IMG/VR virus record: IMGVR_UViG_3300027764_000027
Coordinates: 1-29,109 of that record
Strand: one strand, 5' to 3'
Source of the DNA: a virus
Taxonomy: Duplodnaviria; Caudoviricetes
Length of the DNA stretch: 29,109 bases
Part shown: piece after piece, positions 2,026-21,049 of the stretch
Position numbering within the stretch: the stretch's first letter is position 1
Layout of the letters: each line of letters starts with the position of its first letter
Made by a program: the position numbers and the translations under genes
Notes under the pieces: model-generated
The model's input: the letters and a program-made list of their open reading frames with translations, nothing else
Told to the model about the DNA's origin: nothing
The model's database searches: none

Positions 2026-3162
2026 TCAGGGACGCAACTCCGGCAGCATCCGGAGGGCAGTGGGGTTGGGTTTGGGGCAGAGATAAAGCAGCCGCTGCAT
2101 CTCGCCGGCGCGCGTGCAGCCAGGCAGCCGGGAAAGGCGCACCGCGGTCAAAGCCGCGGGGTCCGCACCGAGTGGCGCGACGATCTGCAAGAGAGTCTTT
2201 TTCACCGCGTCCCACTCCGCCTTGCTTGCCACCTCATAGCGGACCAGCGCGTGAATCGAGCGCTTGCCGCTCGTGTAGATCGCCGCGATCGGCAGAGGCA
2301 GATGGGCCAGCACCCGCAGCCACACCTCAGCGGGCAGCTCATCGCTCTCGAGCACAAAGTAGCGCCACGCCGCCACGTTCCCCTGCGACCGCCGCGTGTA
2401 TTTCGCCGAAACCTCCCGCCCTCCCGCCGGCGGGTAAGTCGCATCGCTGCGCACGATCCATTGCCCGCTCACCGGCTGGGTCAGAAACCACACCCCTTCC
2501 GGCCCGCCCGCCGGCAGCCTCGACTCCACCGCCTTGACCCCGCGCTGCTGGCTCAGCCGATAGCCCGTCACCACAGCCTGCGCGCCAAGCTCCGCAGGCT
2601 TTTTCCAGACGATGAAATCCCCCTGGCTGCGCTGATCCGTGAAAACCAGCACCCGCTCATCCTCCCGGTAAAGCGCATTGAGAAAATCCAGACTGCTCAG
2701 CCCCACGATCTCCACCGCACTCCGGCGCGCGACCCAAGCCTCCGCGATCTCCGGGCAGCCGCGGGTAAACGCATCAATCTGCGCATGATCCAGGGGCGGC
2801 CGATTTGGCCGAGCCTCCGCCTTGGGTTCAGCCGCCACCTCCGCGCCCCAATGGTGCCGCGGCGCCCGCGCCTCCCGGCCATTCTCGGCAAACCAGATCC
2901 GCCGACGCAGCTCCTTGTTGAAGCTCTCGACCGACGCTGAGCACGACCCGTGGAAACAGTAGCCGGTCGGCGCGCCATCCAGCACCACGCGAAAGTCCCG
3001 CTTGCCATTGCCCTTGGTGTGCATGCCCACGCCAGGGCACGCGCAAAAGCCGCCCGTTTCCAGCGCGATCCGCTGCCCCAGCAACTCTCCCAGCAGCACC
3101 TCGGCGATGCTGCGGCGATCGGCTTCACTCACCCAGCCTCCTTGCGCCAGACGCCAAGCCAC
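2026..3162 (-). CDS. AEP/RepB-like DNA primase with N-terminal Zn finger
   Basis: CPG..H..CFHGSC Zn motif; catalytic-type motifs VLESD, YTSGKRSIH, RLSRLPG; true start may be the GTG at 3132. Confidence 0.75.
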   Translation of the reverse strand: MAWRLAQGGWVSEADRRSIAEVLLGELLGQRIALETGGFCACPGVGMHTKGNGKRDFRVVLDGAPTGYCFHGSCSASVESFNKELRRRIWFAENGREARAPRHHWGAEVAAEPKAEARPNRPPLDHAQIDAFTRGCPEIAEAWVARRSAVEIVGLSSLDFLNALYREDERVLVFTDQRSQGDFIVWKKPAELGAQAVVTGYRLSQQRGVKAVESRLPAGGPEGVWFLTQPVSGQWIVRSDATYPPAGGREVSAKYTRRSQGNVAAWRYFVLESDELPAEVWLRVLAHLPLPIAAIYTSGKRSIHALVRYEVASKAEWDAVKKTLLQIVAPLGADPAALTAVRLSRLPGCTRAGEMQRLLYLCPKPNPTALRMLPELRP

Positions 3163-3207
3163 CCCGCGACCGAGGCCGCATTTCGTTTCCAGTGTGCATG
3201 GGCGCAG

Positions 3208-4017
3208 TTAGCCAACCATGACCCCGCCCACCACTTCGCCAGAATCCACCAGGGCGTCCAATGCCTGGCACGCCACCGCGTAATGCACTCGCAGTTTGTT
3301 CTGGATTTCTCCCACGTTTACCGCGGCCCCAATATCAAAGTGCCCCCGGATCTTTTCCAGCACGCGCGCCGGCGTATTAAACCGCGCGCGCACCTCCTCT
3401 GCCGCAATGATCTTTTGCTCGAGGCGCAGGACAAACTCGCCGATCGGGCGCAGCATCGCATGCAGGGCCTCCATCTGCTCCACCGGCAGCGTCTCCCACC
3501 GCCCCTCGATCTCACGCATCCAGAATTCAAACTGCTGCCGCACCGCGTGCGGGCTGCCGACCCCGCTCTCCCGGCCTCCCCCTACCTCGGCACGCGTGAC
3601 CACGCCTTTGATCATGCTCGCCCGCAGCTCCGACGGCGTCAGCTTCTCCCGCTCCGCCGTCTCCAGCCACATCTCGCGCTGCTCCGGCGGCACATCGGCC
3701 CGCGCCGCCACAAAGTGATGCTCCACGCTCAGCGCAGCGTGCGGCACCCCGTCGAGCTTAAGCAGCGCATCCATTGCCTTTACATCCGCAAACTCAAAGT
3801 CCATCTGCAGCAGCGCCTCCGCCGTCCGCTCCTCTCCATAGGCCGCGCGACCATAGCGCACATGCTTAGTCTGCCAGAAGTTCACCGATCTCCGCATCTC
3901 CGAGAGGTAGCGCCCGAGGTCATACCAAGCCTCGAAAAGCAGCCCATCGGGGATGTGCATTTCCTTTTTGAAAAACTGGACTCCGCTGGGGATGGATAAC
4001 GTGTTATTCGGGTGCAT
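3208..4017 (-). CDS. Putative DNA-binding protein with C-terminal FtsK-gamma-like winged helix
   Basis: C-terminal VGEIQNKLRVHYAVACQALDALVDSGEV resembles the FtsK gamma consensus; helical central region. Confidence 0.55.
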   Translation of the reverse strand: MHPNNTLSIPSGVQFFKKEMHIPDGLLFEAWYDLGRYLSEMRRSVNFWQTKHVRYGRAAYGEERTAEALLQMDFEFADVKAMDALLKLDGVPHAALSVEHHFVAARADVPPEQREMWLETAEREKLTPSELRASMIKGVVTRAEVGGGRESGVGSPHAVRQQFEFWMREIEGRWETLPVEQMEALHAMLRPIGEFVLRLEQKIIAAEEVRARFNTPARVLEKIRGHFDIGAAVNVGEIQNKLRVHYAVACQALDALVDSGEVVGGVMVG

Positions 4018-4543
4018 TGGTCGGGGTGGTTGGTAAGTTGGTGTTTTTGATCGTGGTTGAAGTGTTGATCGCCTTCATCGGCGCGCGCATCAGTGCCAGT
4101 CGAAATGCGGCCTTTTCCTCGCATTTCAGCAGCCGCTCACGCGTCTGTTGAGAAATCTTCGCGTCGGGGTTGCGCGCGATACCTCCAAAAAGCGCCTGGG
4201 CACGGTGCATCTCGCGGAAGCTCCGTCGCACCCGCGCCCGCGCGATCATTTCCGCGCCATCCTCCACGAGCACGATGTAGCCCCGCCCGCTCTGATCCCT
4301 GGCCGAGAGATAGAGCCCACTAGCCCCCAGCTCATCATTGATCGCGGCGATGGCTACACCAAAGGCCATCGAGTCAGCCTTCAGTGCCAGCCTTTCTTCG
4401 AGGTAGCCGATGGCGTATTGCGTCCCAAAGGTAATCCCGTTCTCGATCATCTCATCGAACAGGCGCACCCACAGGGCGGGGTAACAGTCATCCTTGGTGA
4501 TTTCCACCGCGGCTTCGATTGGTTCGTTAGGTTCGTTTTTCAT
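4004..4543 (-). CDS. Hypothetical protein directly downstream of the pentamer array (possible accessory DNA-binding protein)
   Basis: 179 aa ORF; ATG lies 8 nt after the array's terminal hairpin; GRGYIV turn followed by basic helices. Confidence 0.7.
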   Translation of the reverse strand: MKNEPNEPIEAAVEITKDDCYPALWVRLFDEMIENGITFGTQYAIGYLEERLALKADSMAFGVAIAAINDELGASGLYLSARDQSGRGYIVLVEDGAEMIARARVRRSFREMHRAQALFGGIARNPDAKISQQTRERLLKCEEKAAFRLALMRAPMKAINTSTTIKNTNLPTTPTNAPE

Positions 4544-4550
4544 AAAGCTG

Positions 4551-5020
4551 TCCGGTGATTAGCCGGATGATTGTGCCTCGCCCAGCGCAGCATAGCCACG
4601 CAAAGCCATTCCGATCAGATTTGAGCAAACTGCAACGGCCCGGGAGCCGCTGTGTGTTTGCCATGCCCTGCCCCGCTATGACACGCTGGGCCCCGCTCTG
4701 CCGCGCAAACTGCAACGGCCCGTAGGCCGCTGTGTGTTTGCTGGGCCTCGCCTCGCCGCGCCTCGCCTCGCCGTGCCTTGCCGTTCCAGGCCAAGCAAAC
4801 TGCAACGGCCCGTAGGCCGCTGTGTGTTTGCTAGGCCAAGCCGCGCCGCGCCAAGCCCTGCCGCTGCAAGCATGGCACTGCACTGCCGCTCCGCGCTGAG
4901 CCCACTGCCGCGCTCCCTCAGGAGCGCGGTGTGTGGACACTGCCCGTCCGAGCCGAGCAGGGACACGCCCCGCCTTGGTCTGCCGTGCATGGGTAAGCAT
5001 AACTTGGCTTCGCCTGGCCT
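4551..5020 (-). ncRNA. Candidate guide-RNA array: five (GGC-NN)n pentamer tracts separated by hairpin repeats
   Basis: Repeats at 4625-4661, 4705-4741, 4795-4831 and a divergent one at 4900-4938; tracts of 82, 68, 53, 43 and ~55 nt in strict 5-nt register; starts right after the RAMP-like gene stop and ends in hairpin 4551-4567. Confidence 0.8.
4625..4831 (-). repeat. Three 37-bp palindromic direct repeats (+ strand GCAAACTGCAACGGCCCGTAGGCCGCTGTGTGTTTGC)
   Basis: Copies at 4705 and 4795 are identical; the copy at 4625 differs only around the loop; outer stem GCAAAC/GTTTGC, inner stem CGGCC/GGCCG. Confidence 0.95.
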
Positions 5021-5629
5021 TTAGGAAACGAGGAAACGTCCGAACTTCGGGCGCCATCCGCCGATGCCACTCAGCCGGCCCGCCAGCTCAAGAGCTTCGC
5101 GCAGAGATTTCTCCGCGACGATGTTCTCATCGAATTCGATGTTGAATGTCAGTTTCCATCCCGTCGGCACCATCGCCCGCACCTTCCAGATCAGCGCACC
5201 GGTTTTGGGCGGCACCTTGGCCGGGCACTCCAGCCGGAAGATTTCGTCATCGTAGTAGGCATCGAGGCTGTTGTGCTTGATCTCCGTGACCAGGTCAGCC
5301 CGGTCCTCGGTAATGATGACCGCCCGGTCAATGTCCTTTCCCTTCTTGGCGGCCGCCGCACCATTGCGGATGCAGGCGATCAAGCAGGTGTCCGGAATGT
5401 AAAACTTCTTTTCCTTGGCGTCCCAGTAGGCGCTCGCCTCCCAGTCGCCGCGCTTTTGCTCGTCGGCCAGCTCCGACATGCGGTTTTCGTCGCCCTTTTT
5501 GCGGGCCGCTTTTAGCAGGCTGTTGATGCGGCGGCTGTTCACGGCGAACGGATTGGCGATCTCCACGGTCTGCGGATTCGACATGATGAGCGGACGGATG
5601 CCCGTCCAGGTTGTTTTGAGACTTTTCAT
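5021..5629 (-). CDS. Stand-alone RAMP/Cas7-like RNA-binding protein
   Basis: N-terminal TGIRPLIM strand, FYIPDTCLIACIRNGA (cf. RAMP IPGSSxKGxxR), C-terminal Gly-rich loop AGRLSGIGGWRPKFGRF; adjacent repeat array. Confidence 0.75.
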   Translation of the reverse strand: MKSLKTTWTGIRPLIMSNPQTVEIANPFAVNSRRINSLLKAARKKGDENRMSELADEQKRGDWEASAYWDAKEKKFYIPDTCLIACIRNGAAAAKKGKDIDRAVIITEDRADLVTEIKHNSLDAYYDDEIFRLECPAKVPPKTGALIWKVRAMVPTGWKLTFNIEFDENIVAEKSLREALELAGRLSGIGGWRPKFGRFLVS

Positions 5630-5677
5630 TTTTATGGGTTTTTTTTGTTTTTTTTGGGTTTACTGCACTGACATCTG

Positions 5678-6301
5678 TTACTCCCCCACGGCATCCAGCC
5701 GCACCCCGTGCCGGCGCGCGTGCACAGCCGTGGCGCGCGCGGCGTAGCTGGCCCTGGCCGATTCGCTGCGGCACCATTTCAGCACGGCAAAGCCAAGCAC
5801 GTCCCGCCACTGGCTCACATACCAATTAAGCTTTGATCGCTGCACTCCGCAGGCCCGCGCGATGTCGCTCTGGGTCCTGCCCCCGGTGACCAGCCCGTCG
5901 AGCCCGGCGGCGAAAATCATTCCCCAATGCGCCAGGCGCGGTTCGATGCCGGGCCGGATCAGATACATCATGATGCGGCAAAGCAGCCCGCTGATCTCCG
6001 TCGTGATCTCCTCCTCCACCTGCGCCCGGTGCCAGGTCATCACCTTTTCGGCCTGGACAAGGCTGATGCCGGCCAGTTCGCAGAGCACCTCCTCGGGCGA
6101 CTCTGGCAGCACCGCCGCGGTGATCCCATACACCGCGTCGTCGCGCATCTTTTGCGTCGGTTGCTGCGCCGTGTTAACCGGAGCGTCGAGCATTGGAGTA
6201 TCGAGGCCGGCGCGCGCCAGCAGCGCGCGATCCTTTGCCGACAGCCCCGCATAAGCAGCCAAGTATTGGGCCTCGCTGTCATTGCGCGCGGAACGGTTCA
6301 T
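5678..6301 (-). CDS. HTH transcriptional regulator (sigma region 4-like C-terminus)
   Basis: RTQSDIARACGVQRSKLNWYVSQW helix-turn-helix; ATGA overlap with the upstream gene. Confidence 0.65.
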   Translation of the reverse strand: MNRSARNDSEAQYLAAYAGLSAKDRALLARAGLDTPMLDAPVNTAQQPTQKMRDDAVYGITAAVLPESPEEVLCELAGISLVQAEKVMTWHRAQVEEEITTEISGLLCRIMMYLIRPGIEPRLAHWGMIFAAGLDGLVTGGRTQSDIARACGVQRSKLNWYVSQWRDVLGFAVLKWCRSESARASYAARATAVHARRHGVRLDAVGE

Positions 6302-6561
6302 GCGTTTACGTTTTCCGTCGCAATCGCTGCCAGCAGCGCGCTAAATCCCCGGCGGGCCCGCACAGGATCCACCGGAGCTCCATTGACGCCGCCCAGCCAG
6401 CGCCACACCACCTGGCGCAACGCCAGCTCTGCATCCTCGCGCTCCGCCGCGATCGCCCAGAGATTTAATCCAAACGCGGGCACCTCCGCCATCCATGCGT
6501 CCGACGCCGGCACCGCCAGCACGCGCACCGTCTCCATCAGCTCCTCAAAGCGCGCGATCAC
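6298..6561 (-). CDS. Hypothetical protein (87 aa)
   Basis: GTG start overlaps the upstream stop (GTGA) and its stop overlaps the downstream ATG. Confidence 0.6.
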   Translation of the reverse strand: MIARFEELMETVRVLAVPASDAWMAEVPAFGLNLWAIAAEREDAELALRQVVWRWLGGVNGAPVDPVRARRGFSALLAAIATENVNA

Positions 6562-6800
6562 TTCGCTCCTCTTTTTTTGCGTGGGGGCTCCGGGATCGGC
6601 ATCCAGTGCGTCACCGCTACGCGCACTCCTTCGGCCGTGCGCCACGTTTCCCCGTCAAGATATCCCAGCCACACCGGCTCGTCCTCGTCCGGGTGGTAAA
6701 TCATCACGGTTATATCCGAGTCGGGCAAATCATCCGCACACCGCGTCCATCGCTTTTTCAAAGCCACGCGCCGCGGGAATTTTTTGTTTTTGCAGATCAT
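6558..6800 (-). CDS. DUF551-like phage protein
   Basis: WTRCADDLP ... VTHWMPIPEPP signature; ATGA-coupled start at 6800. Confidence 0.75.
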   Translation of the reverse strand: MICKNKKFPRRVALKKRWTRCADDLPDSDITVMIYHPDEDEPVWLGYLDGETWRTAEGVRVAVTHWMPIPEPPRKKRGAK

Positions 6801-7015
6801 GCGCGGGCCCTCCGCTGGCGCGTTTTTTGCGCAATTTCTGCGACTTCCGTCGACGCCAGGGAATTCCACGGATGCCGCAGAACCATGCCGCTTTCGTCGC
6901 GGTAGCCGCGGCGCAGCTCCCAAGCCAGCAGCGCAACGCGCACATCGCAAAAGCTCCCGGTGCCGCGCGAGTGGCCACTCAGCGTGATTTCAAAAGATTG
7001 CGCGCGCTCAATCAT
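6797..7015 (-). CDS. Hypothetical protein (72 aa)
   Basis: ATGA overlaps at both ends. Confidence 0.55.
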   Translation of the reverse strand: MIERAQSFEITLSGHSRGTGSFCDVRVALLAWELRRGYRDESGMVLRHPWNSLASTEVAEIAQKTRQRRARA

Positions 7016-7173
7016 TTTGATGAGAGCAGTGAAAAGAACACTTGGGCAACAAGCAACAGCGTGGTGCTGATTGCCACCAGCGCCAGCCACAGACAGCGGC
7101 GCTGGTCCTGGTATTCGCGCTCGCGATCAAGCTGCCATTGGGTTTTGGGGATGTATTTGAGCATTGGGGTCAT
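7012..7173 (-). CDS. Small single-pass membrane protein
   Basis: MTPMLKYIP...CLWLALVAISTTLLLVAQVFFSLL hydrophobic helix; A/C-rich leader. Confidence 0.55.
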   Translation of the reverse strand: MTPMLKYIPKTQWQLDREREYQDQRRCLWLALVAISTTLLLVAQVFFSLLSSK

Positions 7174-7220
7174 TGGGTTGGGTTGTGAATTTGGCAAAGG
7201 CCGCGGCAGCGCGGGGCACC

Positions 7221-7415
7221 TCACGCAAGGTCGCCTTCCGCGGTTTTGTCGGCCTCGATGAGCCGGGCGATGAAATTGGAGAAACTGCGGCCGTCGCGAT
7301 CGGCGGCCGCTTTGCCCAGGCGGTGCAATTTTGCAGGCAGGCTGATGGTCGTTTTGACCACGGGCTCAAATTTCGTAATTTGCTGAATGTCTTTGCGGGA
7401 ATTCCGTTGTTTCAT
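7221..7415 (-). CDS. Ribbon-helix-helix (Arc/CopG-like) regulator
   Basis: KTTISLPAKLHRLGKAAADRDGRSFSNFIARLIE matches the RHH pattern; first gene of the early operon. Confidence 0.8.
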   Translation of the reverse strand: MKQRNSRKDIQQITKFEPVVKTTISLPAKLHRLGKAAADRDGRSFSNFIARLIEADKTAEGDLA

Positions 7416-7470
7416 ACCTGATGTGAATTAGTATGAACAAATCACACAAGCGCAAGGGCAAAGTTACACG
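7407..7470 (-). promoter_or_regulatory. Early promoter/operator region
   Basis: AT-rich intergenic stretch with inverted repeats TTCATAC/GTATGAA (7411, 7431) and TGTGAATT/AAATCACA (7422, 7439). Confidence 0.55.
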
Positions 7471-7504
7471 GACCGGCGTTTCCGGTCAAAAATCATGGAA
7501 GACC

Positions 7505-18823: not shown

Positions 18824-21049
18824 TCATGCGACGGGCTTCTGAACAAGCCAGCAGGTGCCGAGCTTTTCCGCGTGCGGGAAAGCGGCATCGACGGCACGGC
18901 GGACGCCCTCGGCGTCGGTGTAGTCGTGGCCGGCAAGCCAGCCGCCGGGCTTGATCTTGGGCCACCAGGCAGCGATGTCGTCGCGGATGCTCTCGTAGTC
19001 GTGGGCGGCGTCGAGGAAGACGTAGTCGAGCGAGGACGGCAGCGCAGCGGCGGCGGCCAGGCTGGTCATCTGGCAGAGCGAAGGGGTGACCCAGCAGCGG
19101 TCGAGAAAGACGCGGCACGAGTCGAGCATGTTCTCGGGGTAAGGCGCGGATTCGCCCGGCGTGCCGGCAAAGGAATCGACGCCGATGGCGCGGCCTCCGC
19201 AGAATTCCGCGAGCGTGGCCAGGCAGGCAAGGCCGCGGCCTTGTGCGACGCCAACCTCGACGCACAGCGGCTTTTCCACGGCGTTGATGATGCCGGCGTG
19301 CACGCGCCAGGACGAGTCGTCGAGCACGCAGCCGGGGATGTCGCGCCAGGTGAAGACCTCCCGGCCAGCGCGGAGCTGCGCAATGATCTTGGCCCCCGTT
19401 GCGTAATGCATTAAGTTGTTGCTTGCAGCGGTGGTGGGGTGCATGGGCTCGCCGGTAAAGGCGGCATGCCTGTGCTCAAAGACAAGGTGCGGGGCCTCGA
19501 CAATTGCGCGGGCTTTTTCTGCGCGCTCGGTCAGCCAGTTGTCGGAGAACATGCTGAAGAAGGCCGGGTGGAAGAGGTGCCCTTCCTGCCGCCACCAGGC
19601 GCGGTTGACGATGGCAAGGACAATGAGGCCGTCGGTGCGGTGGCCGTCGCTGACGCGCAGCACGGCGGGCGCGGTGGTGTCCGCAAGGGCGGCAAGGATG
19701 GCGCGGTCCCAGCCCTGCGGTGGGATCATGTCGTCGGAGACCTGCACGAACACATCGCCCGCGGCGACGGTGGCGGCGATGTTCCAGGCTCCGCAGGGGC
19801 CGCCGGCGGCGGTGTCCTGGATGATGTGGCGAAAGCCGCCGAGGGCGGGGCCCTCTGCGTCGTCGGGATCGAGGCCGAAGATGTGCTCGATGGCGTCCGG
19901 ATCCTTTGCCCGCTCAAGCCAGAGGGCGCGCGTCTCGATGGCCTGCTGCGCGCGGCCGCGGGTGGCGTGCAACAGCGAGATGCGGCCCGCGTGGCGGTGA
20001 AAGTGATTGGATTCGAGCGCTTCGGCTTTGGCAAAGTGCCCTTGGGTGCGGAGCACGCGGGCCTGCTCCTGGACAAATTGCCAGCCCCACATCTTGCGGC
20101 GCAGATTCCACGGCGCGGGCGCTGGAAGCGGCAGCCCGGCGGCGGCGCGCAGGTAAGCCTCTGCGCGGGTGGGGTCGTCGGCGTTGAGGGCAAGATTGGA
20201 AAGCAGAACCAGTGGCTCGCGGCGGTGCGGACACTCGTGCCAGGCAAACTGCAGCCACTGCGCCTTGTCGGCTGGATCCTCCACGACCATGGACAGCGAA
20301 AGGGCGCACTCGAAGCGCTCGACCGGGCCAGCGTCGGCCCACAGCAGAAACTGCTCGGCGGCAAGTGCGCCCTCGGCTTTCCGACCAATGGCAAAAAGCT
20401 CAGCATACAGATGGTAGCGCAGCGAGGTGGTAAGCTCGGCGGCCGGGATTGACTCAATGATGCGGAGGTTGCGGCCGTTGCGCGCGGCCGGCGGCCGCGG
20501 GCCGGGATCGTGCGTGATGACGCCAGCCGGGCAGCTTGCGGTGCGCCACGTCACGCTGGAATCAATGGGCTCGAGACACTCATGCACAGGCTGCGTCCAG
20601 CGGGCAATGCCGCGTCTCACCACGCGCTCGCGGGGGTTGTCGAGCAGGCCGACATCAGGCACGGCGTAGGGGGTGATAAGCATGTCGAAACGCTCGCCTT
20701 GCGTTTCAAGGGTTGCACGGATGGCCTGCGCGGCGGCAGGCGTGAGGCGGTCGTCGGTGTCGGCCCACATGACCCAGTCGCCGGTGGCCAGGCTCCACGC
20801 TTGATTGCGTGCGGCGGCGAAGTCATCGACGTGCGGCCAGTCGGCATGCCTGGGGGCGTTGAGGTAGTCGCCGGTGATGCAGCCGCGCCCGGCGGCGATG
20901 GCGAGGGTTTCATCCGGCAGCTGATGGCCGATGGCGCGGATGACGACGATTTCGTCGGCAAGCTGCCAGAAGTCGTCGAGAAAGCGACCCATCATGGGGC
21001 CGCCGACGTTGCCGGTGATGATGCAAAGGGAGAGTTTCAAAGGTGTCAT
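18824..21049 (-). CDS. Fusion: GT2 glycosyltransferase + TPR-like repeats + second GT-A domain + class I SAM methyltransferase
   Basis: DDFAAARNQAWSLATGDWVMWADTDD and VHE; helical repeats; SLLHATRGR...VQVSDD; VEVGVAQGRG and FLDAAHDY...KPGGWLAGHDY. Confidence 0.88.
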   Translation of the reverse strand: MTPLKLSLCIITGNVGGPMMGRFLDDFWQLADEIVVIRAIGHQLPDETLAIAAGRGCITGDYLNAPRHADWPHVDDFAAARNQAWSLATGDWVMWADTDDRLTPAAAQAIRATLETQGERFDMLITPYAVPDVGLLDNPRERVVRRGIARWTQPVHECLEPIDSSVTWRTASCPAGVITHDPGPRPPAARNGRNLRIIESIPAAELTTSLRYHLYAELFAIGRKAEGALAAEQFLLWADAGPVERFECALSLSMVVEDPADKAQWLQFAWHECPHRREPLVLLSNLALNADDPTRAEAYLRAAAGLPLPAPAPWNLRRKMWGWQFVQEQARVLRTQGHFAKAEALESNHFHRHAGRISLLHATRGRAQQAIETRALWLERAKDPDAIEHIFGLDPDDAEGPALGGFRHIIQDTAAGGPCGAWNIAATVAAGDVFVQVSDDMIPPQGWDRAILAALADTTAPAVLRVSDGHRTDGLIVLAIVNRAWWRQEGHLFHPAFFSMFSDNWLTERAEKARAIVEAPHLVFEHRHAAFTGEPMHPTTAASNNLMHYATGAKIIAQLRAGREVFTWRDIPGCVLDDSSWRVHAGIINAVEKPLCVEVGVAQGRGLACLATLAEFCGGRAIGVDSFAGTPGESAPYPENMLDSCRVFLDRCWVTPSLCQMTSLAAAAALPSSLDYVFLDAAHDYESIRDDIAAWWPKIKPGGWLAGHDYTDAEGVRRAVDAAFPHAEKLGTCWLVQKPVA

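Follow-up and report, generated by a model that had tools for sequence, protein, structure and literature searches.

The window, that is, the whole 29,109-nt stretch of viral DNA analyzed here, carries terminase, portal, head protease, major capsid protein and amidase genes and a primase-like gene (virus record); this contig may be a partial genome. On its minus strand, the gap between a 202-aa ORF (5021-5629) and a 179-aa ORF (4004-4543) is occupied by an array. Five tracts, A to E, made of 16, 14, 11, 9 and 10 five-base units (60 in all), lie between positions 4577 and 5019 and alternate with hairpins. Each unit comprises a triplet and a variable dinucleotide (NN). The features of the locus, in the order in which they are read on the minus strand, are:

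5021..5629, minus strand: vipr gene, 202 aa, predicted RAMP-fold guide-binding protein (homology to SUSP1 Vipr, fold model)
4939..5019, minus strand: guide tract A, 16 NN units, starting directly past the vipr stop codon
4900..4938, minus strand: tail hairpin 1, 39 nt; 6 bp, ACA/CA internal loop, 9 bp, tetraloop; z -3.4; covariation
4832..4899, minus strand: guide tract B, 14 NN units
4795..4831, minus strand: tail hairpin 2, 37 nt; z -6.3
4742..4794, minus strand: guide tract C, 11 NN units; replaced in the sister strain
4705..4741, minus strand: tail hairpin 3, 37 nt, same sequence as tail 2; z -4.2
4662..4704, minus strand: guide tract D, 9 NN units; replaced in the sister strain
4625..4661, minus strand: tail hairpin 4, 37 nt; z -2.9
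4577..4624, minus strand: guide tract E, 10 NN units, its 5' triplets degenerate; the sister strain has two extra units and GGA in place of AAA
4544..4576, minus strand: terminal variant tail (short hairpin), abutting the vap start codon, near-identical there in close relatives; weak fold alone, z -0.2
4004..4543, minus strand: vap accessory gene, 179 aa, predicted winged-helix-like N-terminus and long helices; homologue in 77 of 80 viral Vipr loci

Contigs of a different study (run X6) reproduced positions 4450-4734 and 4705-4824 without difference; tracts C, D and E are, therefore, not assembly noise. No sigma-70 promoter-like site was found in 3900-7500.

The two variable positions of the unit have entropies of 1.96 and 1.98 bits, and the three triplet positions 1.40, 0.61 and 0.72 bits (60 units). 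GGC is the most frequent triplet (31), followed by TGC (8), AGC (7) and GGA (4), with 10 others; strict GGY accounts for 31/60. The triplet consensus is G at position 1 (38/60), G at position 2 (54/60) and C at position 3 (51/60, a pyrimidine in 53/60), with degenerate triplets present in tracts A, D and E. Identity at a lag of five bases was 0.44, compared to a mean of 0.28 and a maximum of 0.34 in 1000 shuffles of the region. The best run contained 9 GGY per 10 consecutive units, while 100 dinucleotide shuffles of the whole window gave at most 6. At least six GGY per 10 units were found at 14 positions in the window, every one of them inside the array and on the minus strand.

An earlier sequence-only reading of this DNA had listed five dinucleotide strings, and all are in the sequence as given; the string of tract E is right except for its final 'ac', which belongs to the terminal tail (the same tail start is seen in L003, L004, L005, L009, L012 and L023). 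Its single register for all five tracts holds for B-E, which run in one continuous phase, but tract A is off by 2 nt, because the first separator is 39 and not 37 nt long. The repeat-to-repeat distances of 80, 90 and 105 nt, emphasized as multiples of 5, are incidental, since separators (tails) in relatives span 37-45 nt; moreover, 105 nt is an end-to-end distance, the start-to-start value being 107 nt. The separators form structured hairpins, and it is the flanking genes, absent from that reading, that identify the system.

The separators share a fold in which an ACA/CA internal loop separates a stem of 6 bp from one of 8-9 bp capped by a tetraloop, with z from -2.9 to -6.3. In nested, pseudoknot-free folding models, the 37-39 nt tail is explained by a nested hairpin with a 4-nt loop. 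The stem sequence of tail 1 differs from that of the other tails with the fold unchanged. Alignment of 27 tails from the window and 10 related loci revealed that 11 of 15 pairs had changed on both sides, a value reached in none of 500 shuffles. Pairing was 99% in the true register and 31-49% in slid registers of the same tails; 24 of the 27 had been chosen by a script that requires pairing, so that percent paired is partly a product of selection; this does not apply to the covariation or to the near-invariant loop. Several tails are preceded by a tract but followed by none; tract A begins where vipr stops, and tract E ends in a short variant hairpin that is kept ahead of the vap start in relatives. 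We therefore assign the hairpin to the 3' end of each guide. Rfam gave no match, either at the gathering score or with E relaxed to 1; no hammerhead ribozyme was found between guides, and the separators are simple hairpins of 37-39 nt.

The 202-aa protein was matched by phmmer to SUSP1 Vipr (PDB 36pp_D) over residues 1-201 with E 1.8e-16, and a profile of 85 relatives matched SUSP1 Vipr with E 1e-38. It belongs to PHROG 4652, as does Felixounavirus Vipr, and Vipr is its sole significant sequence match among solved structures; identity to SUSP1-type Vipr proteins is ~30%. The predicted model (pLDDT 93) matched Csm3/Cas7-type chains in all rows shown, with a best E of 5e-6.

The downstream 179-aa gene is here called vap and is probably vap1-like. 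A homologue is present in 77/80 viral compared to 1/24 cellular Vipr loci. A profile of 59 clade Vap proteins gave a weak match (24 bits, positions 61-143) to the gene after vipr in a Felixounavirus; pairwise BLAST of the window Vap with that gene was not significant. Fold searches with Vap gave no match at E 0.001 or better, and the best winged-helix row for its model was weak (Z 7.0, rmsd 2.7, 67 residues). Two Vap subfamilies, ~70% and ~25-30% identical to that of the window, pair with near-identical Vipr (L001, L003, L004, L009 and L012 for the former; L005, L007, L013 and L023 for the latter), so vap appears to be exchanged independently of vipr.

VIPR guides consist of 9-16 YNNGG units and a structured 3' tail (10.64898/2026.04.26.720920). 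Their one-base skip usually falls at the wobble position, and they are reprogrammed through NN alone (10.64898/2026.04.26.720920). The mechanism was established by binding, reporter repression and reprogramming (10.64898/2026.04.26.720920) and by cryo-EM (.720927); each unit is bound by a single Vipr subunit, and rival phages and satellites are repressed (10.64898/2026.04.26.720920;.720927). VIPR is also treated in the preprints 2026.10.15.759431 and 2026.10.21.760802.

We conclude that the locus is very probably a phage VIPR system, in membership as well as mechanism, made up of a Vipr-family gene, five guide tracts, hairpin tails and vap. Observed at this locus are the gene order, the homology and fold of Vipr, the 5-nt code, the covarying 3' hairpins and a turnover of guides between strains described below. 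By analogy with the SUSP1 and Pseudomonas fulva systems, one transcript would span vipr, the array and vap and would be cut at or after each hairpin to give five guide RNAs of ~80-120 nt. Each 5-nt unit would be bound by one Vipr subunit with the triplet flipped out, and each NN would pair with two bases of double-stranded DNA, every third base being skipped. The resulting Vipr filament, helped by Vap, is expected to block transcription of a gene of a rival phage or satellite.

The sequence-only reading had proposed that the triplets are a protein-bound scaffold and the dinucleotides a gapped target, and that the skipped base could be the codon wobble position. Both proposals agree with the published VIPR mechanism and rule; the adjacent gene is a Vipr homologue, and the guide of one relative (L013) fits the wobble rule. 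The pattern is thus a real feature that was correctly interpreted, but the interpretation is not new, because scaffold, gapped target and wobble skip are the published mechanism. In effect, the VIPR code of 2026 was re-derived from raw sequence, its headline idea being already established for VIPR. What is added here is modest: a new member of a system described in 2026, whose clade and layout may already be in the figures or data of that paper.

Like published VIPR (10.64898/2026.04.26.720920; PDB 36pp), the locus is phage-borne, with a single ~200-aa RAMP-fold protein, 9-16 triplet/NN units per guide, a structured 3' tail and one accessory gene; no self-target was found, and the L013 guide obeys the 1-nt-skip wobble rule. 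Unlike in SUSP1-type VIPR, the array is located between vipr and vap, Vipr is only ~30% identical, and H17, D177 and K82 are not conserved. The tail folds in the models as a simple hairpin of two stems around an ACA/NA internal loop, whereas that of SUSP1 is a pseudoknot; Felixounavirus tails differ too. The relaxed first triplet base (G 38/60) corresponds to the YNNNG variant already listed in the VIPR paper, which gives NNNGG, YNNNG and NNNNG as relaxed consensus forms and also lists staggered arrays (10.64898/2026.04.26.720920). Judging from the figure legend, the head-to-tail layout of the array may be such a 'staggered' array. With VIPR type II (SUSP1 and a Pseudomonas fulva prophage; vap1) the window shares a multi-guide array and an accessory gene with a weak Felixounavirus match and a predicted winged-helix-like part, but the predicted tail structure and the array position differ.

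A Vipr relative was present at 80 viral loci, in 75 of which the protein end could be scored; 72 of these 75 have a strict tract no more than 1.3 kb from the vipr stop, compared to 0/64 control stretches. Guides are almost wholly different among phages whose Vipr proteins are 86-90% identical. Cellular Vipr matches were all at most 30% identical. Matches to the window terminase were at 21-25%, and a terminase scan for related phages gave no match.

Several minor observations concern the cassette. Phages that share with the window the cassette at 4004-5629, with Vipr 86-90% identical (G001, G002 and others, L120-L132), have almost no other gene in common with it; in the complete G001 genome (51 kb) only vipr and vap of 19 window genes were matched. 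By sequence comparison, the vipr-array-vap cassette looks mobile between unrelated phages. In L001-L013, the guides nearest to vipr recur in several relatives and their triplets are degenerate; distal guides, mostly pure GGC, are phage-specific. This may reflect a gradient of age or selection along the array. Short runs of units recur in otherwise different guides (L005:3373-3420, L009:4226-4283, tract D of the window, L001:3680-3737), which suggests mosaic guides made by recombination. In L018-L020, the Vipr match covers only residues 1-132 and the vap end follows close behind, suggesting a deletion that left an orphan guide.

Guide turnover was revealed by comparison with a sister strain (runs X2-X5 of one study and X8 of another), a comparison that rests on assembled contigs and not on reads. 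In this strain tract C, tail 3 and tract D are absent and 62-64 other bases are found in their place; the replacement changes 132 nt to 62 nt, with the exchange at a tail boundary. Its tract E contains a 10-nt duplication, which adds exactly two units, and a GGA triplet in place of AAA. Across 4794-5116 a single base differs, at an NN position of B, and tracts A and B are thus almost unchanged. The simplest reading would be a whole-guide exchange at the repeated tails. Guide replacement together with a two-unit change in length between near-identical strains bears on the renewal of vrRNA guides, which is unaddressed in those portions of the VIPR preprints that were available.

The sequence-only reading had proposed a search for gapped NN.NN matches in phage, prophage and host databases and in this genome. 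Exact scans of viral contigs with six patterns of nine dinucleotides (two halves of A, and B, C, D and E) returned 0-2 independent families per pattern, 7 in total, in which 13 of 58 held-out bases matched (22%, chance being ~25%); the matches of tracts A-E thus did not rise above chance. Scans of metagenomes with 11 dinucleotides of tracts C and B gave no match. Compared with 76 stretches from Vipr-bearing phage records (2.8 million positions, both strands), tracts A-E scored no better than controls. Pattern searches of Vipr-bearing phage records with 3 mismatches allowed gave 0/5 for C and 2/50 for D, with 3 control matches; a 3-mismatch search with tract C matched 4/40 records, all four already found by the exact scan. 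No self-target was found in the window: the best skip-1 matches within it were 19/32, 18/28, 15/22, 13/18 and 14/20 for A-E, none above 70%. The collection scans were exact, and mismatches were tolerated only within records of Vipr-bearing phages, so that real targets would often be missed; patterns with skip 0, 2 and 3 were run locally.

Two candidate targets were set aside. A match of C (19/22, L105-L109) and a match of E (18/20, L160-L163) pass the 80% cut-off of the VIPR paper and are wobble-aligned. Both were rejected as unproven, since the query itself dictated 18 of the matched bases, the match was not extended by the held-out bases, and about one family was returned per pattern throughout. 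The records concerned share with the window only a generic S49 protease, 30% identical.

A clear target was found for a relative. Read with skip 1, a guide of L013, whose Vipr is 71% identical to that of the window, shows 17/18 complementarity to codons 1-9 of a 140-aa gene in L018-L020. The match starts on the ATG itself and leaves out each wobble base; it scores 28.7 bits, compared to a maximum of 23.6 in 312 control searches. The copy of this gene in L013 itself (protein 96% identical) matches its guide at 15/18. The L013 guide suggests, as likely targets, related phages or satellites that share the host. Only 1 of 78 tail-anchored guides gave a clear target, and mean skip-1 scores were no higher than in controls. 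Three more skip-1 matches of 22-25 bits are ambiguous, two having no long wobble-aligned frame and one being of low complexity. For tracts A-E, for which no target rose above chance, the gapped-code reading is supported, by analogy, by family membership and the target of one relative.

Two side observations were made on these guides. The L013 guide (L013:2227-2274) lies just upstream of the gene whose sister-phage homologue (L018:2620-2645) it matches, and it favours that homologue over the copy in L013. AT is over-represented at the 3'-most dinucleotide of clade guides (10/58 compared to 8%, p 0.017, uncorrected), and tract D ends in this way; such an excess would be expected if some guides cover start codons.

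The targets of A-E not having been found, several of the five guides may be decayed or decoys with no current target, the array of a VIPR locus acting as a recombining pool. This reading, to which we give limited credence, is compatible with the VIPR assignment at the family level and would also fit the triplet degeneracy of A, D and E, with an AAA that is GGA in the sister strain, and the absence of C and D from that strain. However, A and B are almost unchanged there, with one change across 4794-5116, and collection scans restricted to exact matches in viral and metagenome contigs would often miss real targets.

It is improbable that the clade uses the same protein family with another reading rule, such as a different skip length or RNA targets. 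Vipr of the window is indeed only ~30% identical to SUSP1-type proteins, it differs from SUSP1 at the G1-reading residues and K82, and most guides have no skip-1 target; but the one clear natural match in the clade (L013) is skip 1 on wobble. In a second set of records, scores of at least 22 bits were likewise obtained only with skip 1 (2/48, controls 0/192), both of them ambiguous. In the clade, dinucleotide usage agrees weakly better with codon positions 1-2 than with 2-3 or 3-1 (rho 0.62, p 0.01; 40/47 guides in a separate count). When GC is left out, rho is 0.42 (p 0.12), and of the three pairs of positions it is also 1-2 that comes nearest to uniform usage.

Three near-identical, regularly spaced 37-nt palindromes next to a gene for a RAMP-fold protein resemble a CRISPR mini-array with palindromic repeats and spacers, and the 10-nt tandem duplication in the sister strain recalls a simple repeat made by slippage; in either case there would be no dinucleotide code. 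As in Class 1 CRISPR-Cas (Cas7/Csm3 backbone), a RAMP fold with thumb and G-loop is accompanied by hairpin repeats that alternate with variable segments. Unlike there, no cas1/cas2 or other cas genes were seen, a scan of 28 ORFs giving no Cas family match, and the variable segments are a periodic gapped code and not contiguous protospacer copies. The 'spacers' are 43-81 nt long and 5-nt periodic rather than near-constant in length, NN entropy is near-maximal next to fixed triplets, which slippage would not produce, Rfam gave no match, and the only significant solved-structure match of the neighbour is Vipr. This reading is already largely refuted, and we give it a very low probability. The least likely reading, that the tracts are a repetitive protein-coding gene, draws on open frames of 96-176 codons that cross the array (ORFs 4527-5057, 4676-4990 and 4734-5024) and is refuted by the breaking of the frame by the 5-nt period, the 10-nt insertion, the 132-to-62-nt replacement and the tails of 37-45 nt.

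Within the preferred assignment of the locus to VIPR, the residues that read the triplet deserve comment. Counterparts of SUSP1 residues R138, W178, R179, K33, R39, G87 and K88 are kept in the window protein as R151, W192, R193, R33, R43, G97 and K98, respectively, of which R151, W192 and R193 are the kept G2 and Y3 contacts of SUSP1. According to the structural preprint, G1 is read in SUSP1 Vipr by H17 and D177, and D177A or K82A abolishes silencing (10.64898/2026.04.26.720927). Neither G1 reader is conserved in the window protein, where S17 corresponds to H17 and G191 to D177, and the clamp residue K82 corresponds to A92. The first base of NGY triplets is G in 487/616 cases (79%) for 16 proteins with glycine at the D177 position and in 1812/1969 (92%) for 69 proteins with aspartate. 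In a quick tree the glycine forms make up a single clade (14 rows, SH-aLRT 100) with within-clade values of 0.55 to 1.0, and some aspartate forms are equally loose at the first base (L021, 0.67; L083, 0.60). With one clade and confounding, the link between the absence of G1 readers and looser triplets is a lead and not a result. For triplet counts the opposite-strand control was discarded, since the reverse complement of GGC-NN also scores NGC, and a distal-flank control was used instead. As a separate observation, 11 tracts, some of them duplicates, were called at the L022 locus (2456-3755). They surround a Vipr that has S/N in place of the G1 readers, and their first base is the loosest of all (71/121 G).

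We tentatively suggest, as a possibility that falls well short of the VIPR assignment itself, that the window represents a distinct VIPR branch which has lost the G1 readers and accepts NGC scaffolds. Its hairpin tail might then act as a cap, as a cut signal through the invariant ACA/NA loop, and as a recombination handle for swapping guides or lengthening them in 5-nt steps. If so, guides would be renewed without an integrase and directed against close sister phages, with self avoided. Engineering may be simpler with this compact hairpin tail of 33-39 nt than with the pseudoknot of SUSP1, and a natural Vipr without G1-reading residues offers a direct test of how scaffold strictness is set.

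Elsewhere in the window, a 741-aa protein in which a methyltransferase is fused to two glycosyltransferase-like parts is encoded directly after the major capsid gene (18824-21049, minus strand), with ~40% homologues in related phages. At ~7000-7450, GC skew switches sign and GC content drops between the structural/lysis block and the vipr/primase block, both of which are on the minus strand.
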